Part shown: positions 2,308-57,883 of the stretch, in pieces
How the letters are laid out: every line of letters starts with the position of its first letter
How positions within the stretch are numbered: the first letter of the stretch is position 1
From: an uncultured Gammaproteobacteria bacterium
GTDB lineage: Bacteria > Patescibacteriota > Patescibacteriia > Patescibacteriales > GWC2-42-12
NCBI GenBank assembly: GCA_964537265.1
Contig: CAZHZE010000004.1
Span: forward strand, 1 to 62,590
Direction: 5' to 3'
DNA length: 62,590 nt
The notes under the pieces: generated by a model
Database searches by the model: none
What the model was told of the DNA's origin: nothing
Seen by the model: only the letters and a program-made list of their open reading frames with translations
Translations under genes and position numbers: made by a program

Positions 2308-2321
2308 ATTGTTAAAGTTCT
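2308..2321 (-). promoter_or_regulatory. boxA-like antitermination motif in 23S leader
   Basis: Minus strand AGAACTTTAACAAT, about 115 nt upstream of the mature 23S 5' end; resembles the rrn boxA consensus. Confidence 0.5.
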
Positions 2322-2526
2322 AAGTTAATTTTCATAACTTATAATTCGAAATCAAAATTATTCTTCAATTGCGAATTAGAAACTACGAAAATTTTTTAAG
2401 GAAACAAAAAACCGCCTGTCAGCGGTTGAAAAAGGACCAAAAAATGAGCCGTAATTAACCGCTTGTAAGTTTAATGAATAATAAACGATTTATCATATAA
2501 AATAATTGAAGTTTTAACTACTTGAT

Positions 2527-2554
2527 ATTATACAGGATATATAAAATATGTCAA
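2527..2554 (-). promoter_or_regulatory. sigma70-type promoter of the 23S gene
   Basis: Perfect TTGACA-16 nt-TATAAT on minus strand, pointing at the 23S gene. Confidence 0.8.
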
Positions 2555-2694
2555 GCCAAATAACAGCTTTAAAAAATATTTTTTAAAATAGGGCTTATTT
2601 TATTTAATATTAGTAAAATTATTACATTTTATTTTCTATTTAAATAGGCTTAATTAACAGCCAATCCACACTCATATCTTTTTAAATTTACCGA

Positions 2695-2723
2695 TTGACA
2701 AACCATAATCCAAATGATAAATT
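2695..2723 (+). promoter_or_regulatory. sigma70-type promoter for ORF 2795
   Basis: TTGACA-17 nt-TAAATT with extended TG; followed by two leader hairpins and AAGGAGG. Confidence 0.6.
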
Positions 2724-2794
2724 ACAATGTTCGCCTGTATGGGTGAATTACTTATCAAATAACTGATAGGTAAACAAATTTAAGGAGGTGCTGT

Positions 2795-3172
2795 ATGGCA
2801 CAAGACGATAAAAAAAGAAAAGTTTTTAAATTAGTAAAAGCGTCAATTATTAACGGACCCGGCCTGCGAGAAATGGAACTCGCAGTAACCGACCCCTGCC
2901 CCAATGGCAGTAGGCGCAGTATAAAATTTGATTTTGAAGAAAAAGGTTGTGAAATTATTCCGGTTGTTAATGTAACTCTTGACGGAATGACCAGGGTTAA
3001 GGAAGACCCCTATGATCGTTTAAATAACTACCTCTGGAAAATTACCGGAAAAACTAAAATTTCTTTTTGCGGTCATGCCTGGGGTAACTATGATGCAATA
3101 TTTGAAACTTTAGATTATTCGCCAATTTTCAGAAAAGGAAAAATAATCTTTACTGTTTTTGAAAAAGAATAA
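2795..3172 (+). CDS. hypothetical beta-rich protein (stand-alone SD-led cassette)
   Basis: 125-aa ORF with strong SD, own promoter and downstream terminator; no recognisable motif. Confidence 0.75.
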   Translation: MAQDDKKRKVFKLVKASIINGPGLREMELAVTDPCPNGSRRSIKFDFEEKGCEIIPVVNVTLDGMTRVKEDPYDRLNNYLWKITGKTKISFCGHAWGNYDAIFETLDYSPIFRKGKIIFTVFEKE

Positions 3173-3193
3173 TAAAGAATTATAAAAAATTTC

Positions 3194-3225
3194 GCCAGTG
3201 GGTTTAAAACACCACTGGCTTTTTT
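3194..3225 (+). terminator. intrinsic terminator
   Basis: gccagtgg/ccactggc stem plus T-tract. Confidence 0.75.
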
Positions 3226-3283
3226 ATAAATAAAAAACAACCTCTAATTAAGAAGTTGTTTTTTTATATAATTATTTTATCTT

Positions 3284-4339
3284 TTATATTATTCTAAACT
3301 TTTCCAATAACTCCGGATTATTCATATGGATTTGCGCCGCTTCTTTAGAAATAACTTTTGAATCGTATAATCTCTTTAAGTCATGGTCTAAACTTACCAT
3401 CCCTTCTTTTGAACTTGTCTCAATCACGGTTTTAATTTGCGCGATTTTACTTTCTCTAATTAAATTAGATACAGCCGGGGTGTTAGTTAAAATTTCTCTG
3501 GCCGCGATTCTGCCTCCGCCGTTCTTAACTAACAGCCTTTGTGAAATTACCGCAGCTAAAGTCATAGATAACTGCATGCGGACTTGCGTCTGCTGATGAG
3601 GGGGAAAAATATCGATAATACGATCAATAGTCTGAGCCGCGCTGTAAGTATGCAAAGTCGCTAAAACTAAATGCCCGGTTTCAGCTAATGTAATCGTCGT
3701 AGCAATAGTCTCTAGATCTCGCATCTCGCCAACCATAATAACATTAGGGTCTTGTCTTAAGACATGTTTTAAGCCTTTATCAAAAGAAACCATATCATCG
3801 CCTAATTGTCTTTGGGTAATTACACTTTTATCATGCTTAAATCTAAATTCAATCGGATCTTCTAAAGTAACAATAGAACAACTTCTTTGCTGATTAATAT
3901 AATTTATCATGGCCGCCAATGAAGTAGATTTACCGCAACCAGTCGGACCAGTAACTAAAATTAAGCCTTGATTTAAATTTAATAAATCATAAACGACCTT
4001 AGGCATAAGCAAGTCTTCAAGGGTAGGAATTTCATTAGTAATAACTCTAGCCACTAAGCCTAAATTATTTCTTTCATAAAATAAATTAACCCTAAATCTT
4101 GTTTCGTTTTCGTCCTCAAAGCCGAAATCTAATTCTTTTTCGGCAATAAATTTTTTCTTTTGCTCGTCGCTAATAATGGAAAAAATTAATTGTTCAACGT
4201 CTTTTTTATTCAAGATTTTTTTAGCTTCAACCGCGGCTAATTCTCCGTCTATTCTTAATAAAACCGGGGCTCCGACAACCAAATGAATGTCTGACGCGCC
4301 TTGTTTAACCGCTAATTTAAAAATGTCTTGCATGGTCAT
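3284..4339 (-). CDS. pilT: type IV pilus retraction ATPase PilT
   Basis: ASDIHL, GPTGCGKST Walker A, TLEDPIE, LRQDPNVIMVGEMRD, TGHLVLATLH, VSNLIRE. Confidence 0.93.
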   Translation of the reverse strand: MTMQDIFKLAVKQGASDIHLVVGAPVLLRIDGELAAVEAKKILNKKDVEQLIFSIISDEQKKKFIAEKELDFGFEDENETRFRVNLFYERNNLGLVARVITNEIPTLEDLLMPKVVYDLLNLNQGLILVTGPTGCGKSTSLAAMINYINQQRSCSIVTLEDPIEFRFKHDKSVITQRQLGDDMVSFDKGLKHVLRQDPNVIMVGEMRDLETIATTITLAETGHLVLATLHTYSAAQTIDRIIDIFPPHQQTQVRMQLSMTLAAVISQRLLVKNGGGRIAAREILTNTPAVSNLIRESKIAQIKTVIETSSKEGMVSLDHDLKRLYDSKVISKEAAQIHMNNPELLEKFRII

Positions 4340-4459
4340 ATAATTTAAATTATGAATTACAAATTTATTTTTTCAATAATCAAATTAAAAATTTAATGGC
4401 CGTAGTGCTTTATCCGCTCCCCTCACTATCGTTCGGCTGGCGGAAAATTTTTAAAGATT

Positions 4460-5152
4460 TTACCACTTTTTATTTTTTAAACCTTCTTGGGCCGCGGCTA
4501 CTTGAGCTTCTTGTTTAGAAGTGCCTTTACCTTGGGAAATTAACTCATTGTTTAAATAAAGTCCGACAATAAATTCTTTAGCATGATCTGGCCCGGACTC
4601 GCTTAAAACTTTATAATGAGGAGTTATACCAAAAAGTTCTTGAGCTCTTTCCTGAAATTTTGATTTAGGATCAAGATAAAGATGGTTTTTTAAAATATTA
4701 TCCAATTTGGACAAAATAAAATTTTTAACGAATTTTTTGGCCGGCTTAATACCCTGATCTAAATAAATTGCTCCTATAATCGCTTCCATGGCATTAGCTA
4801 AAATAATTTGTCTGGCTTTTGAATTTTTATCTTTAGATTCACCTTTAGATAAATATAAATATTTATCTACGCCTAACTCATTAGCGATAGTAGCTAACAT
4901 GCGATAATTTACTAAACTAGCGCGCCAATTAGTAAGATCGCCTTCTGGAGTATCAGCATATTCATGAAATAAATTTTCAGTGACAATTATTTCTAAAACC
5001 GCGTCGCCTAAAAATTCCAGACGTTCGTTATGATGCAATTCAAAATTAGGGTGTTCATTTAAATAAGAACGGTGCACAACCGCTTGTTTTAAGAGGTCAA
5101 CATTTTTAAATTTAACACCCATTAGTTCTTCTAGCTTGGGAAAGTCTTTCAT
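4460..5152 (-). CDS. rnc: ribonuclease III
   Basis: NERLEFLGDAVL signature and C-terminal dsRBD (GPDHAKEF, SKQEAQVAAA). Confidence 0.97.
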   Translation of the reverse strand: MKDFPKLEELMGVKFKNVDLLKQAVVHRSYLNEHPNFELHHNERLEFLGDAVLEIIVTENLFHEYADTPEGDLTNWRASLVNYRMLATIANELGVDKYLYLSKGESKDKNSKARQIILANAMEAIIGAIYLDQGIKPAKKFVKNFILSKLDNILKNHLYLDPKSKFQERAQELFGITPHYKVLSESGPDHAKEFIVGLYLNNELISQGKGTSKQEAQVAAAQEGLKNKKW

Positions 5153-5238
5153 TGGATAAATGAAAATTTGATATTTGAAATTAGCAATTCTAAATCCGAA
5201 TCGCTAATTACAAATGGCAAATTATTTTAATTATTAAT

Positions 5239-5700
5239 TTACTCTTTTTTTGTTTCTTCTTCTGTCTTTTCTTTCTTTTTTATAGTGGCGCCCACATCTT
5301 TAAAAATAGCACCTAAGACTCCATTAACGAATTTTCCCGATGATTCACCGCCAAAAGCTTTGGCGATTTCAATAGCTTCGTTAATAGCGACTTTCGCCGG
5401 AATATTTTGATCAAAAATTAATTCATAAACTCCGATGCGTAATACATTTCTATCTACGATAGTAATTTGATCCAACGGCCATTCAGTCGCATACTTAGTT
5501 ATATATTGGTCTATTTCTTCTTCGTGATCGATTACGCCGTTAATGATAGCCTTAACAAAACCATGATCATTAAATTTCGGCGCAAACTGCTTAAAATTCT
5601 GTTCGATTAAATCGTTTAAATTTTGCTCCTGTTTACCATTAAAATCCCAAGAAAACAGAGTTTGCATGGCAATAGTTCTGGCGAGATGACGGTTAGACAT
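5239..5700 (-). CDS. nusB: transcription antitermination factor NusB
   Basis: [44 protein letters not shown]. Confidence 0.95.
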
Positions 5701-5783
5701 AAATAAAGTTAAAAGTAGAAAGTTAAAAGTAGAAAGTTAAAATATTTATTATTTACTTTTAACTTTATAAACTTTAGACTATT

Positions 5784-5984
5784 CTATTTTTTTTCTTTTT
5801 TAATTTTGCTTTTTATCTTTAAAACTTCACGGCCTTTATAAGAACCGCAAAAATCACAAGCGCGATGAGGTAAGACAGCTTTACCGCATTTCGGGCATTT
5901 ATTTGTTTTAACTTTTTTTAAAGCTTGGTGTGAACGGCCGCGTCGGGCTTCGCTTCTGCACCTTCGTTTTGCTGGTACTGACAT
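5784..5984 (-). CDS. rpmF: 50S ribosomal protein L32 (Zn-ribbon type)
   Basis: MSVP..RRSH-like N-terminus, CPKC and CDFC; start moved to the ATG at 5984. Confidence 0.92.
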   Translation of the reverse strand: MSVPAKRRCRSEARRGRSHQALKKVKTNKCPKCGKAVLPHRACDFCGSYKGREVLKIKSKIKKEKK

Positions 5985-6109
5985 AAAATAATAAGTCAAA
6001 AATCAAAAGTAAAAAGTCGAAAGACTTTAATTTCTGAATTTTGTATTCTTGTTAATTGTTAAATTTAATTAAATTATAACTTAAAAAACTTGTTTAAGTC
6101 AAGCTAAAA

Positions 6110-7144
6110 TTAAAGAATTAACATAGCATCGCCATAACTAAAAAATCGATATTTCTTCTTAACTGCGGTCTTATAGGCTTTAAAAACTTTATCGCGTCCG
6201 GCAAACGCGCTAACTAACATTATTAAAGTCGATTTAGGTAAATGAAAATTGGTAATCATGCCGTCAACCGCAAGAAATTTATATGGCGGATAAATAAAAA
6301 TATCAGTCCAGGCGGCATAATCTTTTTTTGCTCCCTTTTTAAACGCGCTTTCTAAGGTTCTAGCTGAAGTTGTGCCTACCGCGATTATTCGCCTGCCGTC
6401 GTTCTTAGCTTTTAGAATTCTAGTTAATGTATTTTTATTGATTTCAGCATATTCACTATGCATTTTATGTTTAGTTATATCATTAACCTTAACCGGTGCA
6501 AATGTGCCTAACCCGACTTGTAAGGTTACATATTCAAATTGCACGCCTTTTTTCTTAAGTTCGTTAATTAATTTTTTTGTAAAATGAAAGCCGGCTGTAG
6601 GCGCGGCAACCGAACCAACTTTTTTATCATCCGCGTAAACGGTTTGATAATTTTTCTGATCGCTTTTAACTTTTTGTGCACGTTTAATATAGGGCGGTAA
6701 AGGCGTTAAGCCGATTTTTTCTATCAATTTATTAAAAGCAGAACCTTTTTTATTAAATTTAACTTGCCAAGTTCCGTCTAAATTATTTTTTAAAATTTCT
6801 GCTTTTAAACATCTATCAAATTCGACTTTCAAATTTTCTTTTCTCTTAGGTCCGCCAATTAAACATTGCCAAACACCGGGTTTTATTTTATTTAATAAAA
6901 AAACTTCAACTTTCCCGCCGGTTTCTGCTCGCTTACCAATAAGCCTCGCTGCCATTACTTTAGTATTATTTAAAACTAAAACATCGCCTTTCTTTAAAAA
7001 ATTTATAATATCATAAAAATTCTTATGTTGAATTTCGCCGGTTAATTTTTCCAAAACTAAAAGCCGCGAATGGTCTCGCGGACTAATAGGCTTTTGGGCG
7101 ATTAAATTTTTTGGTAAATTATAATCAAATTTTTTCAGCTTCAT
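6110..7144 (-). CDS. queA: S-adenosylmethionine:tRNA ribosyltransferase-isomerase QueA
   Basis: FDYNLP..LIAQ, PLPPYIKR, YQTVYA, SVAAPTAGFHFT, TNFHLPKST, YRFFSYGDAM; start moved to 7144. Confidence 0.96.
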   Translation of the reverse strand: MKLKKFDYNLPKNLIAQKPISPRDHSRLLVLEKLTGEIQHKNFYDIINFLKKGDVLVLNNTKVMAARLIGKRAETGGKVEVFLLNKIKPGVWQCLIGGPKRKENLKVEFDRCLKAEILKNNLDGTWQVKFNKKGSAFNKLIEKIGLTPLPPYIKRAQKVKSDQKNYQTVYADDKKVGSVAAPTAGFHFTKKLINELKKKGVQFEYVTLQVGLGTFAPVKVNDITKHKMHSEYAEINKNTLTRILKAKNDGRRIIAVGTTSARTLESAFKKGAKKDYAAWTDIFIYPPYKFLAVDGMITNFHLPKSTLIMLVSAFAGRDKVFKAYKTAVKKKYRFFSYGDAMLIL

Positions 7145-7670
7145 GCAATTTTTTATTTTCTTCAACTAGTTTAATTACAATATCCCTAACTTTTTCTGGA
7201 TTAGGAATTTCTTTAAAAACAAATCTCTGCACTTCACCGGCCGTCTGAACATAAACATTGCCGTAATGAAAAATAAATTGCCAAACACCCTTAAGTTCGC
7301 TGGCCACATCTTGAATTTTAGAAATTTTTAATTCAGCGACTGTGCGCGAAAAAAATCCTTCCTGTTTAACATCAATTATTCGCCGATTAGTTATTATCCA
7401 CATATCTAAATAATAATCAATAAAAGTAAAAAAACTAAAAAGCCAAATAAATAAAATATAGCCGCTTATCGCTACGACAATTAAAGGATAAGAAATTTCA
7501 CCTACTAATAAATTGGGATAAAGATTTAAAGCGACAAAACCAACTAAAGCCGGCAAACCTAATAAAACTATAATTAAAACAAAGTGGGAAAACAACACAA
7601 AAATGTCTTTCCTTAAAATTTTTACAATTTTTTCACCTGGTAATTTTTCCAACAATTTAAAAATTAACAT
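7125..7670 (-). CDS. membrane protein with bacterial PH domain
   Basis: Two N-terminal TM helices, then WIITNRRII..Q.GFF.R..AEL..IQDV...YGNVYVQTAG. Confidence 0.75.
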   Translation of the reverse strand: MLIFKLLEKLPGEKIVKILRKDIFVLFSHFVLIIVLLGLPALVGFVALNLYPNLLVGEISYPLIVVAISGYILFIWLFSFFTFIDYYLDMWIITNRRIIDVKQEGFFSRTVAELKISKIQDVASELKGVWQFIFHYGNVYVQTAGEVQRFVFKEIPNPEKVRDIVIKLVEENKKLHEAEKI

Positions 7671-7679
7671 AAAAAATAA

Positions 7680-7940
7680 TTAAAAATTACTAACTCCAAA
7701 CATATTAGTACTACCTTGAAAAATTGTTAAACCGATTTCCCAATCAATTTGGCTTAAATATCCATAAGATAAATATAATATTACTATTGAACCGGCAATA
7801 TAAATAAAGGTAGTAAAAAAAGTTAGAAAGTTAACTTGACCATATTTTATTATATGAAAAAGTGCTATAAAACTAAAAATTATCCAAACAACAACAAACA
7901 ATAAGTATAAAAATAAAACGCTAATTAAAGGAATAGTCAT
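7680..7940 (-). CDS. small two-TM membrane protein
   Basis: Hydrophobic 86-aa ORF packed in an operon. Confidence 0.7.
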   Translation of the reverse strand: MTIPLISVLFLYLLFVVVWIIFSFIALFHIIKYGQVNFLTFFTTFIYIAGSIVILYLSYGYLSQIDWEIGLTIFQGSTNMFGVSNF

Positions 7941-7946
7941 ATGTTT

Positions 7947-8243
7947 TTAATAAGATGTACATTCATATTTAAATTTTATACCACAATTTTTATTTACCCA
8001 TTTTTCGTAGCTAGGGTTGCCGACGTAATTGACCCCCTCATGGGGCATGCAGTCAGTACCTTGAATATATATTTTTGACTCTTCATTATAAATAAGCTTA
8101 GTTAAATCTGGACAAATAAATTCTTCTTTTTCCAAACTTCCTTCTTGTAAATTAAATATAACCCAATAATATAAACTAACAATAAATAATAAAAAAACCA
8201 TTGAGATTATCAATAAATAAATTATTTTTTTCTTTAATGTCAT
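7947..8243 (-). CDS. hypothetical membrane-anchored protein
   Basis: N-terminal TM helix, four Cys; in operon behind ruvB. Confidence 0.65.
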   Translation of the reverse strand: MTLKKKIIYLLIISMVFLLFIVSLYYWVIFNLQEGSLEKEEFICPDLTKLIYNEESKIYIQGTDCMPHEGVNYVGNPSYEKWVNKNCGIKFKYECTSY

Positions 8244-8253
8244 AAAAAATTAA

Positions 8254-9276: not shown

Positions 9277-9324
9277 GCTTATATTTTAACATTTATCTAG
9301 TAATGTTTCAAACTGATTAATATT

Positions 9325-9353
9325 AAAAAACACCGCAATAATAGCGGTGTTTT
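9325..9353. terminator. intrinsic terminator (palindromic, A/T-flanked)
   Basis: aaaacaccgc/gcggtgtttt stem. Confidence 0.7.
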
Positions 9354-9371
9354 AAATTAACTATTTTAATT

Positions 9372-11049: not shown

Positions 11050-11054
11050 GTTAT

Positions 11055-23387: not shown

Positions 23388-23966
23388 ATGCCTTTAATAC
23401 CAACAGTCATTGAAAAATCCGGTCAAATTGAACGGGCTTACGATATTTATTCCCGGCTCTTAAAAGACCGCATTATTTTCTTAGGCGAGCCGATCACTGA
23501 TCACACAGCCAACATTATTATCGCCCAATTTTTATTTTTGGACGCTGAAAGCAAAGGCAAAGACATTAAATTTTACATTAATACTCCGGGCGGATCGGTA
23601 ACGGCCGGCATGGCGATTTACGACACCATGCAATATATTAAATCCGATGTTTCTACTATTTGCGTCGGACTAGCCGCTTCTATGGGCGCGGTTTTACTCG
23701 CGGCCGGAGCCAAAGGTAAAAGATTTGTTCTGCCGAATTCGGAAATTTTAATCCATCAGGTTATGGGCGGATTTGAAGGCCAGGCTTCAGACATTAAAAT
23801 TCACTCTGAACATATTTTGAAAATCAGAGAAAAGCTAAATAAAATTTTAGCTAAAAGCACAGGCCAGCCGATCGGCACAATTGAAAAAGATACTGACCGC
23901 GATCATTTTATGAGCGCGGACGAAGCAGTTAAATATGGGATAGTTGATAAAGTGATTGTAAAATAA
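23388..23966 (+). CDS. clpP: ATP-dependent Clp protease proteolytic subunit
   Basis: [21 protein letters not shown] (Ser), ILIHQ (His), DTDRD. Confidence 0.97.
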
Positions 23967-23976
23967 ATTAAATAAT

Positions 23977-24009
23977 AAAAAACACGCCTCTGAATGAGAC
24001 GTGTTTTTT
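23977..24009. terminator. bidirectional intrinsic terminator
   Basis: aaaaaacacg/cgtgtttttt stem between clpP and a convergent ORF-less unit. Confidence 0.7.
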
Positions 24010-24013
24010 ATTA

Positions 24014-24131
24014 AATAGAAGCGAGGATAATGCTGGGGATCTTTATAGAATTTAAAGGCCTATAAGTTTTAAATGCCTAATTCTATAATAAGAGGTGAGC
24101 CTCCGATCTCAGCATTACTCTCGCTTCTATT
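24014..24131 (-). ncRNA. candidate small RNA forming a long branched hairpin
   Basis: Near-perfect ~28-bp outer stem (aatagaagcgag..taatgctg..gatc with its complement), consensus promoter upstream, terminator downstream, no credible ORF. Confidence 0.5.
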
Positions 24132-24186
24132 GTTTTTAAAGATTTATTAAATTTGACTTTATTAAGCTTTTTAAGCTTAATAAATA

Positions 24187-24215
24187 AATATAGCACATAT
24201 TTTAAATATTGTCAA
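24187..24215 (-). promoter_or_regulatory. sigma70-type promoter for candidate sRNA
   Basis: TTGACA-17-TATATT with extended TG. Confidence 0.65.
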
Positions 24216-30134: not shown

Positions 30135-30323
30135 TTATCCGCCAAATTGATTGACTGTTTCGGCGTGAGACACTATTAATGCCGCTGATCCAGGATTTTT
30201 GCGCGAAAACTCATCAAAATCATCGCATTTTACTTTGCCTATTGCGGCCGGGCAAACATTCGAACTAGAGCAAATTCTGGCGACACAGCCACTATCCTTA
30301 AATTCATGTTCACATTTTTCCAT
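30135..30323 (-). CDS. small Cys-rich protein (SD-led cassette)
   Basis: AAAGGAGG 7 nt before ATG; 5 Cys; own terminator at ~30085-30120. Confidence 0.65.
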   Translation of the reverse strand: MEKCEHEFKDSGCVARICSSSNVCPAAIGKVKCDDFDEFSRKNPGSAALIVSHAETVNQFGG

Positions 30324-32555: not shown

Positions 32556-32659
32556 TTGACAATTATTATTTTATAAACTAATTTAAGATTAACACAAGAC
32601 AAAAATTAAGACAAAAAAATAAAATAAATTGATCTTTTGACATTTTGAAAGGAGAAATA

Positions 32660-33619
32660 ATGAAAACTATAATTTTAGGCAACGAAATTTCCAAGGTAGT
32701 AATTTCATCAATTACGGGGCACTCGGGCGGTGAAATGTTTCCATTAACTTTATTTCCCTCTTACAAAAGATTATTAAGAGTCGTAAAAGAGGCTGGAATT
32801 TACAGTTTAACTAAGTCGTCAACTTATGAAAAAAATATCGGTAATTTTATTTTAGCCAATCCTTGGACTTGGAGCTATATTCAAAGGATAGGAGAAGACG
32901 GCTTGCTTAACGCTTACGGGTTAACTAATTATGGTGTAAGGATAAACTCAGAACATATTGCTTTTGCCTGCAAATCAGGCTTCAAGGTAATACCTAATTT
33001 TTATCCGCAATTTGCCAAAGGCCGTGAACTTGCAGCCAAACAAAAAAAATCACCCGAAGCCGGACTTGAAATTGCAATTCAGGAAACACTTAAAGCAATA
33101 AGAAGATATCAAAGCTTGATGGGTAATTATTTTGAGGCAATAGAATTGAATTATTCTTGCCCCAACACCAAAGAAAAAATTAAGGAAAATGCAAACGATG
33201 CTTTGGCTTGTACTCTTGAAGTAAAACGAGCATTTCCGGAATTAATCAAAATCGCTAAAATCAGTTATGTTCATCCGGTTGAATTAGCGAAAGAGCTAAT
33301 TAAGGTTGGAGCGGATGTAATACATGCAATTAATACAATCCCGTATAATGTGGTTTATCCAAATAGCCCAAAATCACCCTTGGCCCATGTTGGAGGAGGC
33401 GGAGTGTCGGGCGCACCAGTAAGCCGCATGGCATTTAAACATAACTGCATGTTGAGAAAAAAAATTCCCGGCGCTTATATGATTATGGGTTGCGGCATTA
33501 CTTGCCTTGACGACGCTAGAAGATATTTTGAAGAAGCTGGCGCCGACATGATTAGTATCTGCACTCTGGCGCGTCTAAATCCAAAAGAAGCAGAAAAAAT
33601 CATTGAATTTTATAGTTAA
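32660..33619 (+). CDS. divergent class 1 dihydroorotate dehydrogenase-like flavoprotein (SD-led)
   Basis: TKSST, LNAYGLTN, ELNYSCPN, AINTI, GGVSG; start at the ATG after GAAAGGAG. Confidence 0.75.
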   Translation: MKTIILGNEISKVVISSITGHSGGEMFPLTLFPSYKRLLRVVKEAGIYSLTKSSTYEKNIGNFILANPWTWSYIQRIGEDGLLNAYGLTNYGVRINSEHIAFACKSGFKVIPNFYPQFAKGRELAAKQKKSPEAGLEIAIQETLKAIRRYQSLMGNYFEAIELNYSCPNTKEKIKENANDALACTLEVKRAFPELIKIAKISYVHPVELAKELIKVGADVIHAINTIPYNVVYPNSPKSPLAHVGGGGVSGAPVSRMAFKHNCMLRKKIPGAYMIMGCGITCLDDARRYFEEAGADMISICTLARLNPKEAEKIIEFYS

Positions 33620-38439: not shown

Positions 38440-38582
38440 GTTATATTTTATTTGATAGTCTTAAAAAAAGCGGCTAAAAAAATTATCGGCTGCTTGTCAT
38501 AACCGGCAACTTACGCAAGTTGCGGGTTTTTTGTATAAATGAACTTTGAAACAAAAAACATTTAGGGAGAGGAGAGCCTGCC

Positions 38583-38888
38583 ATGAATGACAACTATTAT
38601 AAAGAAAGTGATTTAAAGATAGGTGATATGGTTGTGCCTATCGAAGAAGAATTTCGCGAGACCTTCCAGTTTGGCAACACCGCTAAAAAAATGTTGGGCG
38701 CTATAGGAAATACGGGCTGCAAAATTATTGATGTAAAAAATTACCAATGTGGTTGCCAGAAAAAAAACGGTGATCAACATACTTGCGTGCTTAAAAGTAT
38801 GGGTTCAAACCAAAAAATTTGGCTGCTAATTGACGGACAAAAAACATCTTTCTCGGCAAAATTCTTTCGCTTATTAAACCTTTCCTAA
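38583..38888 (+). CDS. hypothetical protein (SD-led cassette)
   Basis: GGAGAGGAG SD, upstream boxA-like motif, terminator at ~38905-38935. Confidence 0.7.
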   Translation: MNDNYYKESDLKIGDMVVPIEEEFRETFQFGNTAKKMLGAIGNTGCKIIDVKNYQCGCQKKNGDQHTCVLKSMGSNQKIWLLIDGQKTSFSAKFFRLLNLS

Positions 38889-39009
38889 AAAACGCGCTTC
38901 GCGCCAACGGCTTGTTTCATACAAGCCGCTTTTTTTGTTAAATTTTAAATTGCCTACCTTGGTTTTAAATGTTAAAATAAACATAGTTAATTTAACCATA
39001 AACATATTC

Positions 39010-39112
39010 ACCCCGTTAAATATTAATTATGAATTTCATTTGTTAAAATGTCAAACTTCATAATAAATTTATAGGGCTAAAAAAATATGAAAAACATAAA
39101 ATTTAATGGGGT
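39010..39112. repeat. 12-bp inverted repeat pair (MITE-like)
   Basis: accccgttaaat at 39010-39021 and atttaatggggt at 39101-39112 (one mismatch). Confidence 0.4.
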
Positions 39113-44408: not shown

Positions 44409-44583
44409 AAAATAAAATTTAATAATTAAATAAAACTAACCCTAGCTAGCTTCGCCAAAATTCTCTACTTTTATTTTTAAAATAAAATTTTTTCATATAA
44501 ATATATTTAAATTAATTAATTTCAGAATTGGCGGAAAACGAAATAAAATATAATTTCGTTTTCCGCGCATAGATTGGCATGGC

Positions 44584-44745
44584 TTATTGCCAGCCAGGTT
44601 TACTCATACCCTTATTAACTTTATTGCTGCTTTTTTTATCTTTTTCTTTTTCACATTCCGGACAAACTAATTTACTTTCGTTGCCCCAACCCAATGCCAT
44701 TTCCTTAACTATCATTTTTACTCCTGAATGTTTACTACATTCCAT
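44584..44745 (-). CDS. 53-aa Zn-ribbon-like protein (not in the ORF track)
   Basis: MECSKHSGVKMIVKEMALGWGNESKLVCPECEKEKDKKSSNKVNKGMSKPGWQ; GGAGGG SD 8 nt upstream; CxxH plus CPEC. Confidence 0.6.
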   Translation of the reverse strand: MECSKHSGVKMIVKEMALGWGNESKLVCPECEKEKDKKSSNKVNKGMSKPGWQ

Positions 44746-44790
44746 AATTTTTTCCCTCCATATTTTTTTATAAAGATCATTTTAACAAAC

Positions 44791-45056
44791 AAAAAAACCT
44801 CCCATCTCTTAGGCATAGCCAAACTATGCTTAAGGGACAGAAGGTTATTCCGTGTTGCCACCCTTATTCCGAAAATAAAAAAACGCTTTCGAGCGTTTTA
44901 TTTTCGCTCATCGACTCCACCTTAATGGCGACATCGATTATCCTATGATTACGGAGGAAGCCGAGTTAACACTAACGCATTAACCACTCTTTAAGTTCAG
45001 ACCCAACCCCGATATAATTACCGGGATCTGAACGAGTTTTACGATTTTTAAGTTCT
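44791..45056 (-). promoter_or_regulatory. T-box riboswitch, probably Trp-specific, transcriptional
   Basis: T-box AAGGGTGGCAACACGG at 44864-44849; antiterminator overlapping a terminator with T7 tract; short stem at 45033-44995 with UGG in a bulge. Confidence 0.8.
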
Positions 45057-47797: not shown

Positions 47798-47992
47798 ATG
47801 ACGGAGAAATCTAGTATCGGTGGAGGGGGCACGAGAGTGACTGAACATCATAGCAATGGTTCAAGCACTGACAAAGACTATGTCAAAGGAGAGTGCGTAG
47901 CCATTACAGATCATGATGCCAATGGCAAAAGCCACTCCCATGAAGTAGGACACGGATTACTTGGACCTTTTAAAGGAGAAAGGAAAGATTAA
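47798..47992 (+). CDS. small His-rich protein (SD-led cassette)
   Basis: TTGACT-17-TAAATT promoter, AAAAGGAGG, terminator ~48015-48050; internal repeat TEHHSNGSS/TDHDANGKS. Confidence 0.7.
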   Translation: MTEKSSIGGGGTRVTEHHSNGSSTDKDYVKGECVAITDHDANGKSHSHEVGHGLLGPFKGERKD

Positions 47993-51026: not shown

Positions 51027-51032
51027 AAATAA

Positions 51033-51509: not shown

Positions 51510-51513
51510 TTTT

Positions 51514-52983
51514 ATGTCTAAACAACTAAAAATAGTTTTTATTTGCGCCGAAGTAGATCCATTTTCAAAAACCGGCGGCTTAGCTGACGTGGGTAGAAGT
51601 TTACCTAAGGCTTTAAAAAGACTCGGCCATAAAATAATAATTATAACGCCTTTTTATGGTCAAATTATTGATCCTAAAAAACATGGTTTAAAACTGATAA
51701 AAGAAAATGTCAGTGTTTATTTAAATTCGGCGGATAAAATCCAAGTTAATTTTTGGCGCGGAAATTTAATGGCGGATTTACCGGTATATTTTATTGAAAA
51801 TAAAAAATATTTTTCTGCTAGAAAAAATATTTACGGTTCATCGCATGAAAACGCACGCTTTTTAGCTTTTGATGTCGCCGCGCTAAAATTAATTTCTTTT
51901 CTTAAATTTGAAGCTGACATCGTGCATTGTAATGACTGGCATACCGGCCTTATTCCCTATTATTTAAAAACTGACTTTCAATACTCAAAAACTTTAAGAA
52001 AGGCTAAAACGATTTATACTATTCATAATTTAGCTTTTCAACTCGGCCATGGTTGGTGGGAAATACCTAATGAAAATAAAGATTATGGTCGTAGCCGCCT
52101 ACCTCATCTTGATGATCCTAAAATCGAAAATGTTAATTTTGCTAAACGAGCTATTTTATCGGCCGACATAATTAATACTGTTAGCGAACAATACCGCGAA
52201 GAAATTTTAACAAAAAAATTCGGTCAGGATTTGCATCGTATTTTGGGCAACCGCCAAGACAAGCTTTACGGCATAATTAACGGTATTGATTATAAAACCT
52301 ACAACCCGGATAATGATAAAAATTTATTTAAAAATTATAATTACGAAAAAATTCACCGAAAAAAATTAAATAAAGAATATCTGCAAAAAAAAGTTGGATT
52401 ACCGGTTGATCCAGAAACGCCAATCATCGCCCTAACCTCAAGAGTTACTTTTCAAAAAGGCATGGATTTAATTTTAGAAATAATAGAACCGTTAGTTAAA
52501 TTTGATGTGCAAATTATAATTATGGGCGATGGAGATAAAAATTATATCGCCGAACTTAAAAAATATAATAAAAAATATCCTAAAAAAATAGTCTGGCTAT
52601 CTTTTAAAGAAAACCCAAATCTAGAAACTCTAATTTATGCCGGCGCTGATATCTTTCTTCTGCCATCGCATCATGAACCTTGCGGTATTAACCAATTAAT
52701 CGCCATGCGCTATGGTTGCATTCCAGTAGTTAGAAGAGTTGGCGGTTTATATGATACTGTCACAAATTTTAATCCAAAGACTAACCGCGGCACCGGTTTT
52801 AATTTTACTAACTTTGACAAATATTCTTTATTCGCTACCGTTATTAGAGCCTTAGAAAATTATCAGTATGAAAATACTTGGCGTGAATTAATAATAAGGG
52901 CGATGAAAGAATCAAATAGTTGGGAAATACCAGCTAAAAAATATGTGGCGCTATATAAAAAAGCCATGAAAAACGGTAAATAA
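51514..52983 (+). CDS. glgA: glycogen/starch synthase (GT5), copy 1
   Basis: KTGGLADV, HCNDWHTG, TIHNLAFQ, EPCGINQL.AMRYG.IPVVRRVGGL.DTV. Confidence 0.92.
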   Translation: MSKQLKIVFICAEVDPFSKTGGLADVGRSLPKALKRLGHKIIIITPFYGQIIDPKKHGLKLIKENVSVYLNSADKIQVNFWRGNLMADLPVYFIENKKYFSARKNIYGSSHENARFLAFDVAALKLISFLKFEADIVHCNDWHTGLIPYYLKTDFQYSKTLRKAKTIYTIHNLAFQLGHGWWEIPNENKDYGRSRLPHLDDPKIENVNFAKRAILSADIINTVSEQYREEILTKKFGQDLHRILGNRQDKLYGIINGIDYKTYNPDNDKNLFKNYNYEKIHRKKLNKEYLQKKVGLPVDPETPIIALTSRVTFQKGMDLILEIIEPLVKFDVQIIIMGDGDKNYIAELKKYNKKYPKKIVWLSFKENPNLETLIYAGADIFLLPSHHEPCGINQLIAMRYGCIPVVRRVGGLYDTVTNFNPKTNRGTGFNFTNFDKYSLFATVIRALENYQYENTWRELIIRAMKESNSWEIPAKKYVALYKKAMKNGK

Positions 52984-52984
52984 T

Positions 52985-54166
52985 ATGATAGAACAAAAAA
53001 ATAAAATTATTTGGATTAATTTACTTCATTTTTACCAACCGCCAACTGCAGATAATGAAACCATTGTTGAAGCAACTGAAAAAAGCTATAAAAGAATTAT
53101 TAACGCTTTAAAGCGAAATGGGCGAATTAAATTTACTCTTAATATAACCGGCTGCCTTTTAGAAAGGTGGGAAAATTTAGGTTACGCGGAGTTAATTAAT
53201 GATTTAAAAAAATTAATTTCAAACGGCCAAGTTGAATTAACCGGTTCGGCTGCTTTTCACCCCCTACTCGCCTTACTGCCAGAAAAAGAAATTATTAGAC
53301 AAATTAAAATAAATGAAGAAATTTTAAAAAAATATTTCGGTAAAAAATTTAAACCGAAAGGCTTTTTTATTCCTGAAGCGGCGTACGGAGTTAAAGTAGC
53401 TAAAATAATCAAAAAATTAAATTACCGCTGGATTATGCTTGATGAAATAAGCGCTAATATTAAACAAAATAATCTTGATTTTTCTAATTTATATATTGAT
53501 AAAAATTCTGGATTAAAAATTCTTTTTCGCCAAAGAGAAAATTCAAAAAAATACGCGCCAAAAGTAATTTTTAAACTAATAGAAGAGTTTAAAAATCAAA
53601 CTGTCATCACGGCCACCGACGCCGAACTTTATGGCTTAAGGCATAATGATTTTAGTTCTACCTTTGAAAAATTATTAAAACGGCCGGAAATTAAAACTTT
53701 AACAGTTAACCAATATCTGTCTGGCTTAAAAAAAATTAAAAAAATTACTTTACGCGCTTCATCTTGGGAATCAACCGAGCAACAATTAAAAAATAATTTA
53801 CCCTATTTTCTTTGGCATAATAAAAAAAATAAAATCCAAAATTTACTTTGGCAATTAACTAATATCGCTATTACTAACATAAATAAATATGCTAAAGATC
53901 AAAATCATTTTTGGTCTCGCCGGCATCTAGATAGAGGATTGGCCAGTTGCACTTTCTGGTGGGCTAGCGCTCATGATTTTAAACTTTATGGCCCGATTTC
54001 CTGGAATCCTGATGAAATAGAAAAAGGCGCTAATGAATTAATTAGAAGCATCCGCTCGTTAGCTAACCCGAGAACCAGACAAACTAAAATCAAGGCAGAA
54101 AAATTATACATAAAAATAAAACAATTAATTTGGCATAAACATTGGCGTTATTATTGGGAAAAATAA
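52985..54166 (+). CDS. glycoside hydrolase family 57
   Basis: LHFYQPP, AFHPLL, IPEAAY (nucleophile Glu), TDAELYG (acid/base Asp). Confidence 0.82.
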   Translation: MIEQKNKIIWINLLHFYQPPTADNETIVEATEKSYKRIINALKRNGRIKFTLNITGCLLERWENLGYAELINDLKKLISNGQVELTGSAAFHPLLALLPEKEIIRQIKINEEILKKYFGKKFKPKGFFIPEAAYGVKVAKIIKKLNYRWIMLDEISANIKQNNLDFSNLYIDKNSGLKILFRQRENSKKYAPKVIFKLIEEFKNQTVITATDAELYGLRHNDFSSTFEKLLKRPEIKTLTVNQYLSGLKKIKKITLRASSWESTEQQLKNNLPYFLWHNKKNKIQNLLWQLTNIAITNINKYAKDQNHFWSRRHLDRGLASCTFWWASAHDFKLYGPISWNPDEIEKGANELIRSIRSLANPRTRQTKIKAEKLYIKIKQLIWHKHWRYYWEK

Positions 54167-54167
54167 T

Positions 54168-55190
54168 ATGAATAAAATTTTACATCTTTTAGATCAGCAG
54201 TTTGTTTTAGACTTATTTACTAAAGAAGTCTTACCGCTTTATCCGGAATTTAAAAAAATTGAACAAATTGAAATTAAACCAATTAAAAAAAATATTTGGG
54301 AAACTACTTATCATGTTGTTATAGAATACACGACTAAACTCATAAAAGACGACGGGGAAATTTTGGAATTGCCTATTTATTGTTCGGCTCATTCTAACGA
54401 ACCAAGAAAAAATTCATATAAAGCTTTAAGTTTTCTCTGGCATCAAGGCTTTGCCCACGGTAATCTAACCATGCCTCGTCCATTATTTTTTTCCGACTAT
54501 TTTAACGGCTATTTTTATCGCGGCGTTCAAGGCAATAACCTTTATTATTATATCCGCAATAAAAATTTTGAAGAAATAAAAAATATTATACCAAAAGCCG
54601 CTGCCTGGTTTGCTAAATTACATCAATTGCCAACCGAAGAAGCTAAAAATTTTAACGAGCAAAATAGCCGTGTCAAAACAGTTATCCCCGGCTATGACTT
54701 TATTTATAATAAACTTAAACATAGCTATTCTGATTATTATCCAACTTACAAAGAAGCTTTTGAATTAATTAATAAAAAAGAAACTGAATTTTTAAATGGG
54801 CTAAAAAAACATTGGTTAATTCACGGCGACGCCCATCCGGAAAATATTATTAAAATGAGCGCCGAAACTATCGCTGTAATAGATTTTACCGACATCTGCC
54901 TGGCTGATTTTGCTCGCGATTTAGGCGCATTCATGCAGCAATTTGAATACATGTCGATTAGAAAAATTGAAGACCAAAGCTATGTAAAAAGAATGCAGGA
55001 CTTATTTATAAATAACTATTTAGAACTTACTAAAATAAAAATGGATAATTCGCTTCGTGAAAGAATAAATATTTATTACTGCTGGACAGCTTTAAGAACT
55101 GCTACTATGTTTTTTCTTAAAGAACAGCCGGAACCAGAACGCGCCCATGAACTTTTAAATAAAGTACGCCAAGATTTAAAGCTAAACTAA
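54168..55190 (+). CDS. aminoglycoside/choline-kinase-fold phosphotransferase
   Basis: FAKLH, IHGDAHPENI Brenner motif, IDFTD, DLG. Confidence 0.8.
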   Translation: MNKILHLLDQQFVLDLFTKEVLPLYPEFKKIEQIEIKPIKKNIWETTYHVVIEYTTKLIKDDGEILELPIYCSAHSNEPRKNSYKALSFLWHQGFAHGNLTMPRPLFFSDYFNGYFYRGVQGNNLYYYIRNKNFEEIKNIIPKAAAWFAKLHQLPTEEAKNFNEQNSRVKTVIPGYDFIYNKLKHSYSDYYPTYKEAFELINKKETEFLNGLKKHWLIHGDAHPENIIKMSAETIAVIDFTDICLADFARDLGAFMQQFEYMSIRKIEDQSYVKRMQDLFINNYLELTKIKMDNSLRERINIYYCWTALRTATMFFLKEQPEPERAHELLNKVRQDLKLN

Positions 55191-55191
55191 T

Positions 55192-55779
55192 ATGGCAGTT
55201 GATACAAAAATCTACGACCAAATTTTTTTTAATAACACGTTAAAATTAGAAAGCCCGTCAGCCAAAGCTTTCGTTTCTATTATAATAAAATATTTCCAAC
55301 CAAAATCAGTTATTGATATTGGCTGCGGCATCGGTATTTATCTGGCTGAAATGGAAAAAAACAATATAAAAATATTAGGTTATGACGGTTCGCCGGCAGC
55401 TATTGCCGGATCACTTGTCGGCAAAAAAATAAAATTTTATGATTTATGCCGCCCGCTAAAAATAAAACGAAAATTTGATTTATGCTTATGCTTGGAAGTT
55501 GCTGAACATTTGGAAAAAAAATATACAAAGACACTAATTAAAAATTTAATAAATTTATCTTCAGTTATAATTTTTACCGCCGCTACTCCGGGTCAAGGTC
55601 CAAAGAGTATAGGGCACATAAATGAACAGCCCCATAAATATTGGCAAAAATTATTTGCAGAAAAAAATTTTAAATTAAATAAAAAATTAACCGAAAAAAT
55701 AAGGCAAGAAATGATTAATAAAAAAGTAGTTTGGTGGATTACTAAAAATTTAATGATATTTCAAAAAAATGAAAAATAA
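55192..55779 (+). CDS. class I SAM methyltransferase (glycan-locus type)
   Basis: IDIGCGIG, LEVAEHL, TAATPGQG..GHINEQ..YW. Confidence 0.82.
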   Translation: MAVDTKIYDQIFFNNTLKLESPSAKAFVSIIIKYFQPKSVIDIGCGIGIYLAEMEKNNIKILGYDGSPAAIAGSLVGKKIKFYDLCRPLKIKRKFDLCLCLEVAEHLEKKYTKTLIKNLINLSSVIIFTAATPGQGPKSIGHINEQPHKYWQKLFAEKNFKLNKKLTEKIRQEMINKKVVWWITKNLMIFQKNEK

Positions 55780-57112
55780 TAAACTTAAAATTTTAATCGC
55801 TGCGGCCGAAGTCGCGCCTTTAGCTAAAGTCGGCGGCTTAGGCGATGTTATTGGCGCTTTACCTAAAGCTTTAAATAAACTTAATTTAGATGTGCGAATA
55901 ATTATGCCATTTTATGGCATAATAGATAAAAACAAATACAAAATAAAATTAATAAAACAAAATATAAAAGTCGGCAGCGAATCTACAAATCTTTGGCAAA
56001 CAAATTTGCCAAACGCTAATGTTTCGGTTTATCTTATTAAACATAATTTTTTTAAAGATAAAACAATTTATTCCAACACTTTAGCCGGTAGCAAAAAGGA
56101 TACTGATAAATTTGCTTTTTTTGCAAAAGCTATTTTAGACAATATAAAAGCTATAAATTTTTCCCCGGACATAATACATTTAAATGACTGGCATGTTGCA
56201 AAAGTGGCGAGGCTATTAAAAACTACCTATAAAGACGAACAACATTTTAAAAATACAAAAACCGTTTTTACTATCCATAATTTAGCTAACCAGGGCATAA
56301 CAGAAAATAAAAACTATATGGCTGAAGGCATTTTAAATTCTGATGTTATAACGACTGTCAGCCCAACTTATGCTAAAGAAATTTTGACTAAAGAATATGG
56401 CGCTGGCCTAGATAAAATTTTAACAAAAAGGAAAAATAATCTTTATGGAATTTTAAATGGCATTGATATAGACTTTTTTAACCCGGTAAATGATAATTTT
56501 ATCAACCAAAAATATTCACTGAATAGTTTAAATAAAAAAATTAATAATAAAACATTTTTACAAAGACAGATGGGCTTGCCTGAGAATAAAAATAAAGCTT
56601 TAGTCGGCTTAGTTACTAGATTTGTTGGGCAAAAAGGAGTTGAATTAATAACAGAAAATTTTTCTAAATTAAATTGTCAATTTGTTTTGCTCGGAACTGG
56701 TGAAAAAAAATATGAAGATTATTTATTAAATTTAGCAAAAAAATTTCCTAAACAATTCAGCGCACAAATTAAATTTGACGAAAAATTAGCTCATTTAATT
56801 TACGCCGCTTCAGACATATTTTTAGTGCCATCGCTTTTTGAACCATGCGGCTTAACACAAATGATCGCTATGCGCTACGGTGCTGTGCCGGTAGTGAGGG
56901 AAACTGGCGGGCTAAAAGATACGGTTAATAATAAAGTCGGTTTAACTTTTAAAAATTTTTCTTCCGATGAATTTTACAAAACTTTAGAAAAGGCTTTATC
57001 TATTTATAATAAAAATTCTAAGCTCTGGCATAAGCTACAAGTTAATGGTATGAAAAAAGATTTCTCATGGGATAAATCTGCTCAAGAATATTTGCGTTTA
57101 TATAAAAAATAA
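55769..57112 (+). CDS. glgA: glycogen/starch synthase (GT5), copy 2
   Basis: KVGGLGDV, HLNDWH, TIHNLANQG, FEPCGLTQMIAMRYG. Confidence 0.9.
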   Translation: MKNNKLKILIAAAEVAPLAKVGGLGDVIGALPKALNKLNLDVRIIMPFYGIIDKNKYKIKLIKQNIKVGSESTNLWQTNLPNANVSVYLIKHNFFKDKTIYSNTLAGSKKDTDKFAFFAKAILDNIKAINFSPDIIHLNDWHVAKVARLLKTTYKDEQHFKNTKTVFTIHNLANQGITENKNYMAEGILNSDVITTVSPTYAKEILTKEYGAGLDKILTKRKNNLYGILNGIDIDFFNPVNDNFINQKYSLNSLNKKINNKTFLQRQMGLPENKNKALVGLVTRFVGQKGVELITENFSKLNCQFVLLGTGEKKYEDYLLNLAKKFPKQFSAQIKFDEKLAHLIYAASDIFLVPSLFEPCGLTQMIAMRYGAVPVVRETGGLKDTVNNKVGLTFKNFSSDEFYKTLEKALSIYNKNSKLWHKLQVNGMKKDFSWDKSAQEYLRLYKK

Positions 57113-57228
57113 AATTTTATCTATAAAAGCCAAAATATTTTTATCGGGTTGACAAAATCAAAAATTTTTGCTAAAATTATATTAGATAATACAAAATCAT
57201 ATTATCTATAAAAAACAAAAACAAAAAA

Positions 57229-57477
57229 ATGTCATTAGCAAAAAATCATGCCAATTACTTTAATTTAGGTCATATTGGCTGGAAATATTACAACACAATA
57301 AAAAAGAAAGCAGTGGAGCAGGAGTTCAGTTGGTCTGGACTCTTTATAAGCTTGTCCATTGCTTTTTTTATTATTATGGTTAGCGCTATGATGCTTAATT
57401 TTATTTTTAATTACTTAGACGGGAATCAAAACAATAATTTTTCTAATCAAATTTATTATCTAGAAAAAAATATTTAA
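57229..57477 (+). CDS. small membrane protein
   Basis: One TM helix; TTGACA-17-TAAAAT promoter upstream. Confidence 0.55.
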   Translation: MSLAKNHANYFNLGHIGWKYYNTIKKKAVEQEFSWSGLFISLSIAFFIIMVSAMMLNFIFNYLDGNQNNNFSNQIYYLEKNI

Positions 57478-57540
57478 AATAATTTGATATATTATTTTTT
57501 AATATAATCTGCGGCTAAAACAAAAAAAGCTGCAACTATC

Positions 57541-57757
57541 GATCATTTAAAAAAACAAACAGGAGGATTAAAAACTAAAACATATGAAGAAGCTGTGTTA
57601 ATTTAACAGCTTAGAAAATTAGAAAAAACCAAAAAAAATAGAAATAAAAAAATCAGAAAATCTGCCAAATTAACACAGCTCCCCTTCCTGCTTTATCATC
57701 ACCTGGTAGAGCGAGCATGGGGAAAAACACCGCCGGGACTCTAGGGGCGGTGTTTTT
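57541..57757 (+). ncRNA. candidate structured ORF-less RNA
   Basis: 13-nt perfect long-range complement gctgtgttaattt/aaattaacacagc; SD pairing with ttcctg; strong terminator. Confidence 0.4.
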
Positions 57758-57883
57758 TTATTTTTAATAAATATGATATAATAACTTTAAGCGTAAAAGC
57801 TCTTTAAACAGTTCCAGGGAGGAACTGTTTTTATTACATTTAATAAACGATCTTTTAAATTATAATTATGGAGGTAGTTGAAA

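Follow-up and report, generated by a model that had tools for sequence, protein, structure and literature searches.

The eight boxA-like sequences considered here lie on contig CAZHZE010000004.1, a stretch of 62,590 nucleotides (nt), in full the window, from a Patescibacteria (candidate phyla radiation, CPR) genome. In our view they are best explained as a mixed set (with a probability of roughly 0.5): the copy in the 23S ribosomal RNA (rRNA) leader is the rRNA boxA, two copies in the leaders of a dihydroorotate dehydrogenase (DHODH)-family gene and a PIN-PhoH gene are conserved messenger RNA (mRNA) elements that would bind NusB and ribosomal protein S10, two may be degenerate members of the same kind, and three are chance matches. 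An original prediction, made from the window alone, had taken all of them for parts of a Nus-dependent antitermination regulon of accessory mRNAs and small RNAs (sRNAs); judged by comparison with relatives, such a 'regulon' would be small at best, and antitermination within it is unproven. The most unusual finding of the analysis stands just upstream of the rRNA boxA, where a short upstream open reading frame (uORF) and a terminator together look like a translation-sensing attenuator of rRNA transcription.

The 23S gene is present with its first 2194 nt, on the minus strand, and no 16S gene lies upstream of it. An exact 37-nt pattern from the 23S 5' end had zero matches in genome contigs, and a relaxed pattern led to 120 loci, which were fetched; relatives' loci used for comparison are named L001 and so on. 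A boxA profile was built from 43 distinct sites in 45 Patescibacteria 23S leaders, in which the consensus G-N-[AC]-C-N-TTAACAAT occurs 95-250 nt before the 23S gene (scores are given in bits, and gapped scores allow one inserted base on this profile). The element in the window is the top profile match there, at 19.3 bits, the runner-up (15.5 bits) lying within an open reading frame (ORF). Because the Escherichia coli rrn boxA also scores 16.3 bits on the Patescibacteria profile, the comparison establishes the 23S-leader copy as the lineage's classical rRNA boxA, as had been proposed; by itself, this boxA is ordinary. The gene nusB is likewise in the window (5239-5700, minus strand; Pfam NusB, E = 3e-40), with rpmF, encoding ribosomal protein L32 (5784-5984, minus strand), in the apparent gap upstream of it, and the order rpmF-nusB-rnc-pilT-23S is kept in more than 20 Patescibacteria loci.

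The leader follows the order promoter, uORF, antiterminator/terminator, boxA and 23S gene in 54 of 56 Patescibacteria loci (loci L005-L122). A terminator of the form CCGC-loop-GCGG-T-run is conserved in the 56 loci, and a uORF of 10-16 codons ending 20-36 nt before the CCGC is found in 54 of them, compared with 3.1 +/- 1.7 in shuffled sequences; it is 12-13 codons long in 50 of these 54. The encoded peptide ends in SG or KRF before the stop codon, the nucleotides AAGCG[GA]TT being read in differing frames between subgroups. The helices were tested on 47 distinct sequences in an anchored alignment, where the terminator helix is 91% paired and the antiterminator helix 77.9% paired, as opposed to 26-42% when the latter is slid by 1-3 columns. 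Compensatory changes are seen in 6 of the 11 antiterminator pairs (one pair is UA in 34 cases, CG in 10, AU in 2 and other in 1), and none of 500 shuffles attained the covariation score of this helix. The antiterminator and terminator helices hence exclude each other, and a short ORF, predicted to be translated, overlaps a strand of this pair, which is what defines a leader-peptide attenuator. About 22 loci have boxA beginning so soon past the T-run (8-17 nt) that a second promoter would not fit between them, and 23S transcription must pass the leader terminator. The element is absent from Rfam, and a literature search found no paper on it.

In the proposed model, a ribosome finishing the uORF would mask region 1, formed by its last codons and stop, so that the terminator forms; with no ribosome on the uORF, the antiterminator would form and the polymerase would enter boxA and the 23S gene. 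This attenuation logic accounts for the terminator beside the 23S boxA without Nus antitermination. The arrangement resembles the leader-peptide attenuators of trp and pyrBI, in which a short uORF reaches with its end into the antiterminator strand, and this strand and an intrinsic terminator compete, but differs from them in that the 23S leader controls an rRNA and has no evident regulatory codon run. With lambda nut sites (boxA plus boxB) it shares a short boxA beside a hairpin on the nascent transcript, although neither an N-like protein nor a boxB equivalent was identified here and the hairpins are intrinsic terminators upstream of the boxA-like element. In comparison with E. coli rrn boxA, on which NusB, NusE (S10), NusA, NusG and SuhB act (PMC5725501), the 23S element likewise sits between promoter and mature rRNA, both contain CTTTAACAAT, and nusB is encoded nearby here. 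In contrast, the 5' half is variable (G-N-[AC]-C-N, as against GYTCT in gamma-proteobacteria), 16S and 23S are unlinked, and a uORF-controlled intrinsic terminator, instead of boxB, precedes boxA.

The eight copies were listed at 2308-2321 (minus strand), 32630 (plus), 38540 (plus), 44766-44779 (minus), 57799 (plus), 57848 (plus), 57541 (plus) and 24132-24144 (minus), and all eight strings are present there. Taken as one motif class, they are no more than chance: a loose motif covering all seven non-rRNA copies occurs 62 times in the window, against 63.5 +/- 7.5 expected from dinucleotide shuffles, and is not enriched. GA[TA]CTTT alone occurs 28 times against 26.5 expected from the same shuffles, and the strict GA[TA]CTTT.AAA six times against 1.8, yet four of these six lie within ORFs. 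No perfect match to GYTCTTTAANA, the boxA consensus of Baniulyte et al. 2017 (PMC5725501), lies upstream of any window gene, and none within 50 nt of a start codon, as at suhB-type sites; the sole perfect match in the window is antisense in an ORF (55115). On the ungapped profile, the seven non-rRNA copies all score 3.2 bits or less, values equalled by 200-2300 window positions, and on the gapped profile 5.5 bits or less except 57799 (8.8).

Strong Shine-Dalgarno (SD) sequences precede only about 10 of the 64 starts in the window, where the majority of genes are SD-less, and these starts are what the original prediction called 'SD-led cassettes'. A narrower kernel, G[AG][TA]CTTT within 60 nt upstream, is associated with SD-led starts (4 of 10, versus 1 of 54 SD-less starts; Fisher p = 0.0015, for a motif chosen post hoc); for any 7-mer with at least two G/C to be common to at least three of ten such SD-led regions, the chance is 0.013-0.03. 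In 1.16 Mb of other Patescibacteria the kernel-plus-SD pattern stands upstream of 0 of 100 SD-led ORFs, so that the GATCTTT spelling is clade-specific, which the boxA-like elements at orthologous leaders are not. The positions ascribed to the copies hold in part. Copies 32631, 38541, 44778 and 57849 lie shortly before an SD sequence (distances in the table), but 57541 and 24144 have no verified gene behind them; a terminator adjoins 38541, 44778, 57849, 57799 and the 23S copy, but not 32631.

The gene behind 32631 belongs to the DHODH family (Pfam DHO_dh, E = 7e-19), and five orthologous leaders (46-73% protein identity) retain the promoter and the block G-N-W-C-N-TT-Y-AACAA beside the SD sequence. 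The extra pyrimidine within the element is present in all five, and in four of them only 2-6 nt separate the element from the SD sequence. Three genomes have both this element and the 23S boxA known, and in two of them the elements agree at positions 2-3 (GAAC/GAAC in MFFY01 and GCAC/GCAC in CAZLKB01), which is anecdotal but suggestive. The leader shares its intergenic region with the divergent recQ, the start codon of which abuts the TTGACA at 32556. At suhB, boxA is 6 nt from the SD sequence and bound Nus factors repress translation (PMC5725501). The DHODH-family element is similar to such mRNA boxA sites in lying a few nt upstream of the SD sequence (2-6 nt in four leaders, 6 nt in suhB) and in being conserved across orthologous leaders; it differs from them in its mismatches to GYTCTTTAANA, including the extra pyrimidine, and the target genes here are not Nus factors.

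The kernel at 57849 is retained in the leaders of PIN-PhoH orthologues that are 83-92% (L001, L002 and L123) and 69% (L211) identical; it is 14-16 nt past the T-run in all of them, while its distance from the SD sequence varies from 9 to about 30 nt and its flanks change. In the leader terminator, the loop and 3' arm contain the SD-like sequence GGGAGGA. Conservation of the suhB type is thus found at 32631 (five leaders, 46-73%) and at 57849 (four orthologues, 69-92%), and not at 57799, and on this comparative footing the first two are identified as conserved boxA-like elements in mRNA leaders. They add to a kind already described in gamma-proteobacteria. The proposal of boxA on accessory mRNAs has comparative support at these two sites but not at the other five listed copies, and no sRNA target of a boxA regulon is supported. 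As a side observation, the nearest homologues of PIN-PhoH (57884-59293) outside the immediate clade are 51-54% identical, and the few named ones are from Deltaproteobacteria or Smithellaceae, with the digester habitat shared; this suggests that the gene may have been acquired horizontally from an SD-using donor.

When the rRNA boxA profile was run over 1.3 Mb of Patescibacteria loci outside the rRNA genes, with column-permuted profiles as controls, there was an excess of intergenic sites among the high-scoring matches. At 14 bits or more, 7 of 23 matches are intergenic (p = 0.021), and at 15 bits or more 6 of 13 (p = 0.003), the intergenic background being 12.8%; permuted profiles gave a mean of 1.5 intergenic matches at 14 bits. 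Besides the DHODH-family leaders, the best matches belong to a single module that precedes a purN-like gene in L130, L135 and L137 and is composed of a promoter, a small hairpin, a T-run and, after 8-14 nt, an ungapped full-consensus boxA (13.9-15.2 bits). Its layout is that of the PIN-PhoH leader in the window, and AAGGAGG in the loop and 3' arm of its hairpin has a counterpart in the GGGAGGA of the PIN-PhoH hairpin. The purN-like gene, found in relatives only, is a third mRNA with a boxA-type element; in the window, its place is taken by a 62-amino-acid (aa), cysteine-rich, SD-led ORF.

Copies 44778 and 38541 share with boxA the 5' half (G..C.TT) and with each other the position between terminator and SD sequence, and may be degenerate boxA members; they score 3.0 and 2.0 bits, respectively. 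The ORF behind 44778 (44584-44745; 53 aa, cysteine-rich) lies upstream of trpB and trpS, and its leader, AAA[TC]GATCTTTATAAAAAAATATGGAGGGAAAAA followed by the SD sequence, is identical in L131 and L132, where two unrelated small ORFs follow instead. The region 44830-45059 matches the T-box family (RF00230) with E = 1.5e-7 in a local search and 39.8 bits, below the Rfam gathering score of 93; it has the T-box sequence AGGGUGGCAACACG, a terminator and trpB-trpS downstream, but differs from the known family in this score and in the variable small cysteine-rich ORFs between leader and trpB. We rejected the kernel as part of a second promoter, with a -10 just upstream of GATC, which would bypass the T-box: L132 has CAAAAC in place of the -10-like hexamer. 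A strong, conserved hairpin without a T-run (44531-44566, minus strand; GCGGAAAACGAAAT...ATTTCGTTTTCCGC) stands between the variable small ORFs and trpB, which is 97-99% identical in L131/L132, while the neighbouring trpS is only 81-91% identical. Copy 38541 belongs to a strain-specific cassette of about 650 bp (approximately 38440-39086) that L131/L132 lack, 32 nt separating the flanking genes there. SD-led small ORFs that are strain-specific and often cysteine-rich recur in the window (38440-39086, 44584-44745, 30135-30323 and 47798-47992).

The remaining three copies, 57799, 57541 and 24144, have neither conservation nor context in their favour and, judged by sequence, are not supported as boxA but are probably AT-rich chance matches. 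Copy 57799 contains GCTCTTTAAAC, which matches GYTCTTTAANA in 10 of 11 positions, 74 nt from the start codon; it is kept in three close relatives and lost in L211, where GCTCTTTAAAC has become GCTTTAATAGA. A metagenome scan for PIN-PhoH yielded one further close relative only. Copy 57541 scores 5.2 bits (gapped), and its counterpart in relatives, GAACATTAAAAAA, 8.9 bits, in a comparison limited to close relatives. The structured RNA around it (57484-57759, plus strand) precedes the PIN-PhoH leader and comprises a promoter, a 5' hairpin and a strong terminator; a long-range stem, GCTGTGTTAATTT/AAATTAACACAGC, encloses the mini-ORF ATG AAG AAG CTG TGT TAA, and long blocks are invariant in L001, L002 and L123. 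Copy 24144 is without the invariant G1, and about 120 window positions score as high. The putative sRNA in which it lies (about 210 nt, 23977-24215, minus strand, between clpP and rny) has a strong TTGACA-17-TATATT promoter (24187-24215), a 5' hairpin, a second, irregular hairpin about 120 nt long and an intrinsic terminator (23977-24009); it folds with -83 kcal/mol over 216 nt and has no Rfam match.

Table 1. Sequence features of the boxA-like elements, their leaders and their counterparts in relatives.
Feature	Position	Strand	Sequence	Remarks
23S leader promoter	2527-2554	-	TTGACA-16-TATAAT	consensus; drives uORF, terminator, boxA and 23S; conserved in relatives
23S leader uORF	2455-2496	-	MINRLLFIKLTSG, then stop	13 codons; conserved in 54/56 loci
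Attenuator region 1	2455-2464	-	AAGCGGTTAA	last uORF codons and stop; complementary to terminator 5' arm
23S leader intrinsic terminator	2405-2428	-	CAACCGCtgacagGCGGTTTTTTG	attenuator regions 2 and 3; between promoter and 23S boxA
rRNA boxA	2308-2320	-	GAACTTTAACAAT	about 114 nt before mature 23S 5' end (2194); downstream of promoter 2527-2554
boxA look-alike before rpmF-nusB	6052-6069	-	TTAAATTTAACAATTAA	11/13; 9.3 bits
Copy 24144	24132-24144	-	AATCTTTAAAAAC	linker of putative sRNA of about 210 nt
DHODH-family promoter	32556-32579	+	TTGACA-N12-TAAACT	DHODH-family leader
DHODH-family boxA-like element (32631)	32631-32644	+	GATCTTTTGACATT	one extra pyrimidine; 5' untranslated region of DHODH-family gene; 5.5 bits (gapped)
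Same, alternative spelling		+	GAUCUUUUGACAUU	window
Same, L136, alternative spelling			GAACCUUCAACAAU
Same, L130/L132			GATCTTTTAACAAC	13.2 bits (gapped)
Same, L135			GATCTTTCAACAAC	13.2 bits (gapped)
Same, L136			GAACCTTCAACAAT	16.7 bits (gapped)
Same, L137			GCACATTCAACAAA	10.8 bits (gapped)
DHODH-family SD sequence	32649-32654	+	AAGGAG	4 nt past boxA-like element; ATG of gene at 32660
Copy 38541, kernel	38541-38553	+	GAACTTTGAAACA	8 nt past hairpin with T-run (38506-38533); 12 nt before SD of 101-aa ORF (38583-38888)
Copy 44778, kernel	44766-44778	-	GATCTTTATAAAA	12 nt past T-box terminator (44791-44844); 7 nt before SD GGAGGG
Copy 57541	57541-57553	+	GATCATTTAAAAA	5' part of conserved structured leader RNA (57509-57759)
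PIN-PhoH extended -10	57772-57782	+	TATGATATAAT	upstream of leader terminator
Copy 57799	57799-57810	+	GCTCTTTAAACA	abuts and partly forms 5' flank of PIN-PhoH leader terminator
PIN-PhoH leader terminator hairpin	57806-57832	+	AAACAGTTCC-AGGG-AGGAACTGTTTTT	folded; conserved in L001, L002, L123 and L211
PIN-PhoH boxA-like kernel (57849)	57849-57861	+	GATCTTTTAAATT	16 nt past terminator T-run; 9 nt before SD GGAGGT (57870-57875); ATG 57884
Same, L001			GGTCTTTAAAAAT	11.9 bits
Same, L002/L123			GGTCTTTTAAAAAT	9.9 bits
Same, L211			GTCCTTTTAAAAT	8.0 bits
SD-led starts with kernel	32660, 38583, 44745, 57884
purN-like leader	L130, about 3660-3830	-		also in L135 and L137

Several observations weigh against reading the set as a mixture that includes Nus sites on mRNAs. 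The kernel was defined after the data had been seen, and the sequence context is AT-rich. Scored against the rRNA boxA of their own lineage, the mRNA copies in the window reach only -0.5 to 5.5 bits, as good as 160-1500 other window positions, compared with 8-16.7 bits for orthologous copies, and the DHODH-family variant departs from boxA by a 1-nt insertion, so that it needs a 1-nt gap to be matched. The 3' half AACAAT, which together with G1 and C4 makes up the conserved rRNA core, is degenerate in most mRNA copies, and the PIN-PhoH orthologous sites are few and phylogenetically close. In the profile scan, matches just past terminator-like hairpins number 8 against 3.9 expected, which is marginal (p of about 0.05). 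No conserved boxA was found upstream of the rpmF-nusB operon either: Nus autoregulation through such a site was considered and rejected, the look-alike there not being kept in L098, L115, L023 and L116.

Much of this would also fit a reading in which only the 23S copy is a Nus site and the DHODH-family and PIN-PhoH blocks are kept for other reasons, such as initiation context, an RNA-binding protein or the overlap with the recQ promoter, their boxA likeness being an A/T-rich by-product. The unenriched loose motif, window copies no better than hundreds of random positions, the intergenic region shared with recQ and the rpmF-nusB look-alike that matches 11 of 13 positions without being conserved all speak for it. 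It leaves aside, however, a block conserved beside the SD sequence in five DHODH-family leaders, of 13-17 bits in four of them at 46-73% protein identity, as well as the intergenic enrichment of high-scoring matches relative to permuted profiles and the ungapped full-consensus boxA of the purN-like leaders, and we regard it as possible but doubtful. A different role for the kernel, that (U)CUUU(U) is a weak anti-SD, forming G.U and A-U pairs with GGAGG, and hides the strong SD sequence of the rare SD-led genes as a fourU-type thermometer or translational attenuator, seems improbable to us. Minimum free energy folds do pair the U-run with the SD sequence in six of nine motif-bearing leaders, and the change in the PIN-PhoH leader from GATC...GGAGGTA in the window to GGTC...GGAGGTC in L002 keeps or extends the pairing; but the energies of -2 to -6 kcal/mol are those of shuffled sequences (z from -0.7 to +0.75), L211 retains the kernel at about 30 nt from the SD sequence, and the conserved G1, C4 and AACAA half of the DHODH-family leaders are unexplained by it. 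Pairing of the kernel with the 3' tail of 16S rRNA was rejected as well, the order GAUC...GGAGG being opposite to what the anti-SD tail requires, as reasoned from the known 16S 3' end.

The full original model, in which all seven copies are functional boxA elements and NusB-S10 recruitment allows read-through of the terminators beside them on accessory mRNAs and sRNAs, appears highly improbable; at most sites, position and missing conservation already contradict it. Its best case is 57799, the only copy that precedes a terminator, with its near-perfect consensus kept in close relatives, but this copy is lost in the 69%-identity orthologue. Processive antitermination calls for an element before the terminator, and 57849, 44778, 38541 and the 23S boxA all follow the one that they adjoin; because of this geometry, with conserved copies either after a terminator or at an SD sequence, none of the conserved copies can act on the adjacent hairpin by classical antitermination. 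Furthermore, 24144 and 57541 are unsupported, the terminator beside 44778 is that of the T-box and would be governed by transfer RNA (tRNA), and the 23S terminator would be governed by the uORF attenuator upstream of boxA.

Under the mixed-set reading, which we prefer, NusB-S10 would bind boxA elements on the nascent transcript, the mRNA variants less strongly than the rRNA boxA, with consequences that would depend on where the element lies. At the DHODH-family gene, where the element abuts the SD sequence, the bound complex would most likely limit access of the 30S subunit, as at E. coli suhB, and SD occlusion of this sort would tie expression to free NusB/S10. Where the element lies 8-16 nt past a leader terminator (PIN-PhoH, purN-like and 23S), it would most likely equip with Nus factors those polymerases that are already beyond the attenuator, making downstream transcription processive. 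A joint picture, which we offer as speculation and rate as unlikely in its entirety, would, in Patescibacteria whose rRNA genes are unlinked, have ribosome abundance close and ribosome scarcity open the 23S gene through the uORF attenuator, boxA arm the polymerases that read through, and the terminator-boxA unit be copied onto a few mRNAs (DHODH-family, purN-like and PIN-PhoH), giving a small NusB/S10-linked regulon that ties nucleotide metabolism to ribosome production.

The window has a G+C content of about 33% and five tRNA genes, and the relatives of its proteins are from Patescibacteria metagenome-assembled genomes, several of them mislabelled 'uncultured Gammaproteobacteria'. L001, L006, L013-L015, L023 and others carry the title 'uncultured Gammaproteobacteria bacterium' (binchicken, SRP co-assemblies); gene content and rRNA leader clearly place them in Patescibacteria. 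DNA sequencing runs that contain window sequence are from wastewater and anaerobic digesters; in RNA-seq runs, the matches were conserved 23S words of other organisms only, and none was specific to this genome. Weak Rfam matches to Thr_leader (23952-24013) and sX4 (over tRNA-Ser) were taken as chance.

Regulation in CPR/Patescibacteria is almost unexplored, and the organisms cannot be cultured alone. The lineage-specific boxA profile can be used for the annotation of rRNA leaders and in the search for more targets. Should boxA elements on a few mRNAs prove functional, Nus factors would join the small number of regulators that can be identified in such minimal genomes, and nucleotide-metabolism genes would be linked through them to ribosome synthesis. 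The uORF attenuator, if true, would be a direct, sequence-encoded feedback of ribosomes on rRNA synthesis.

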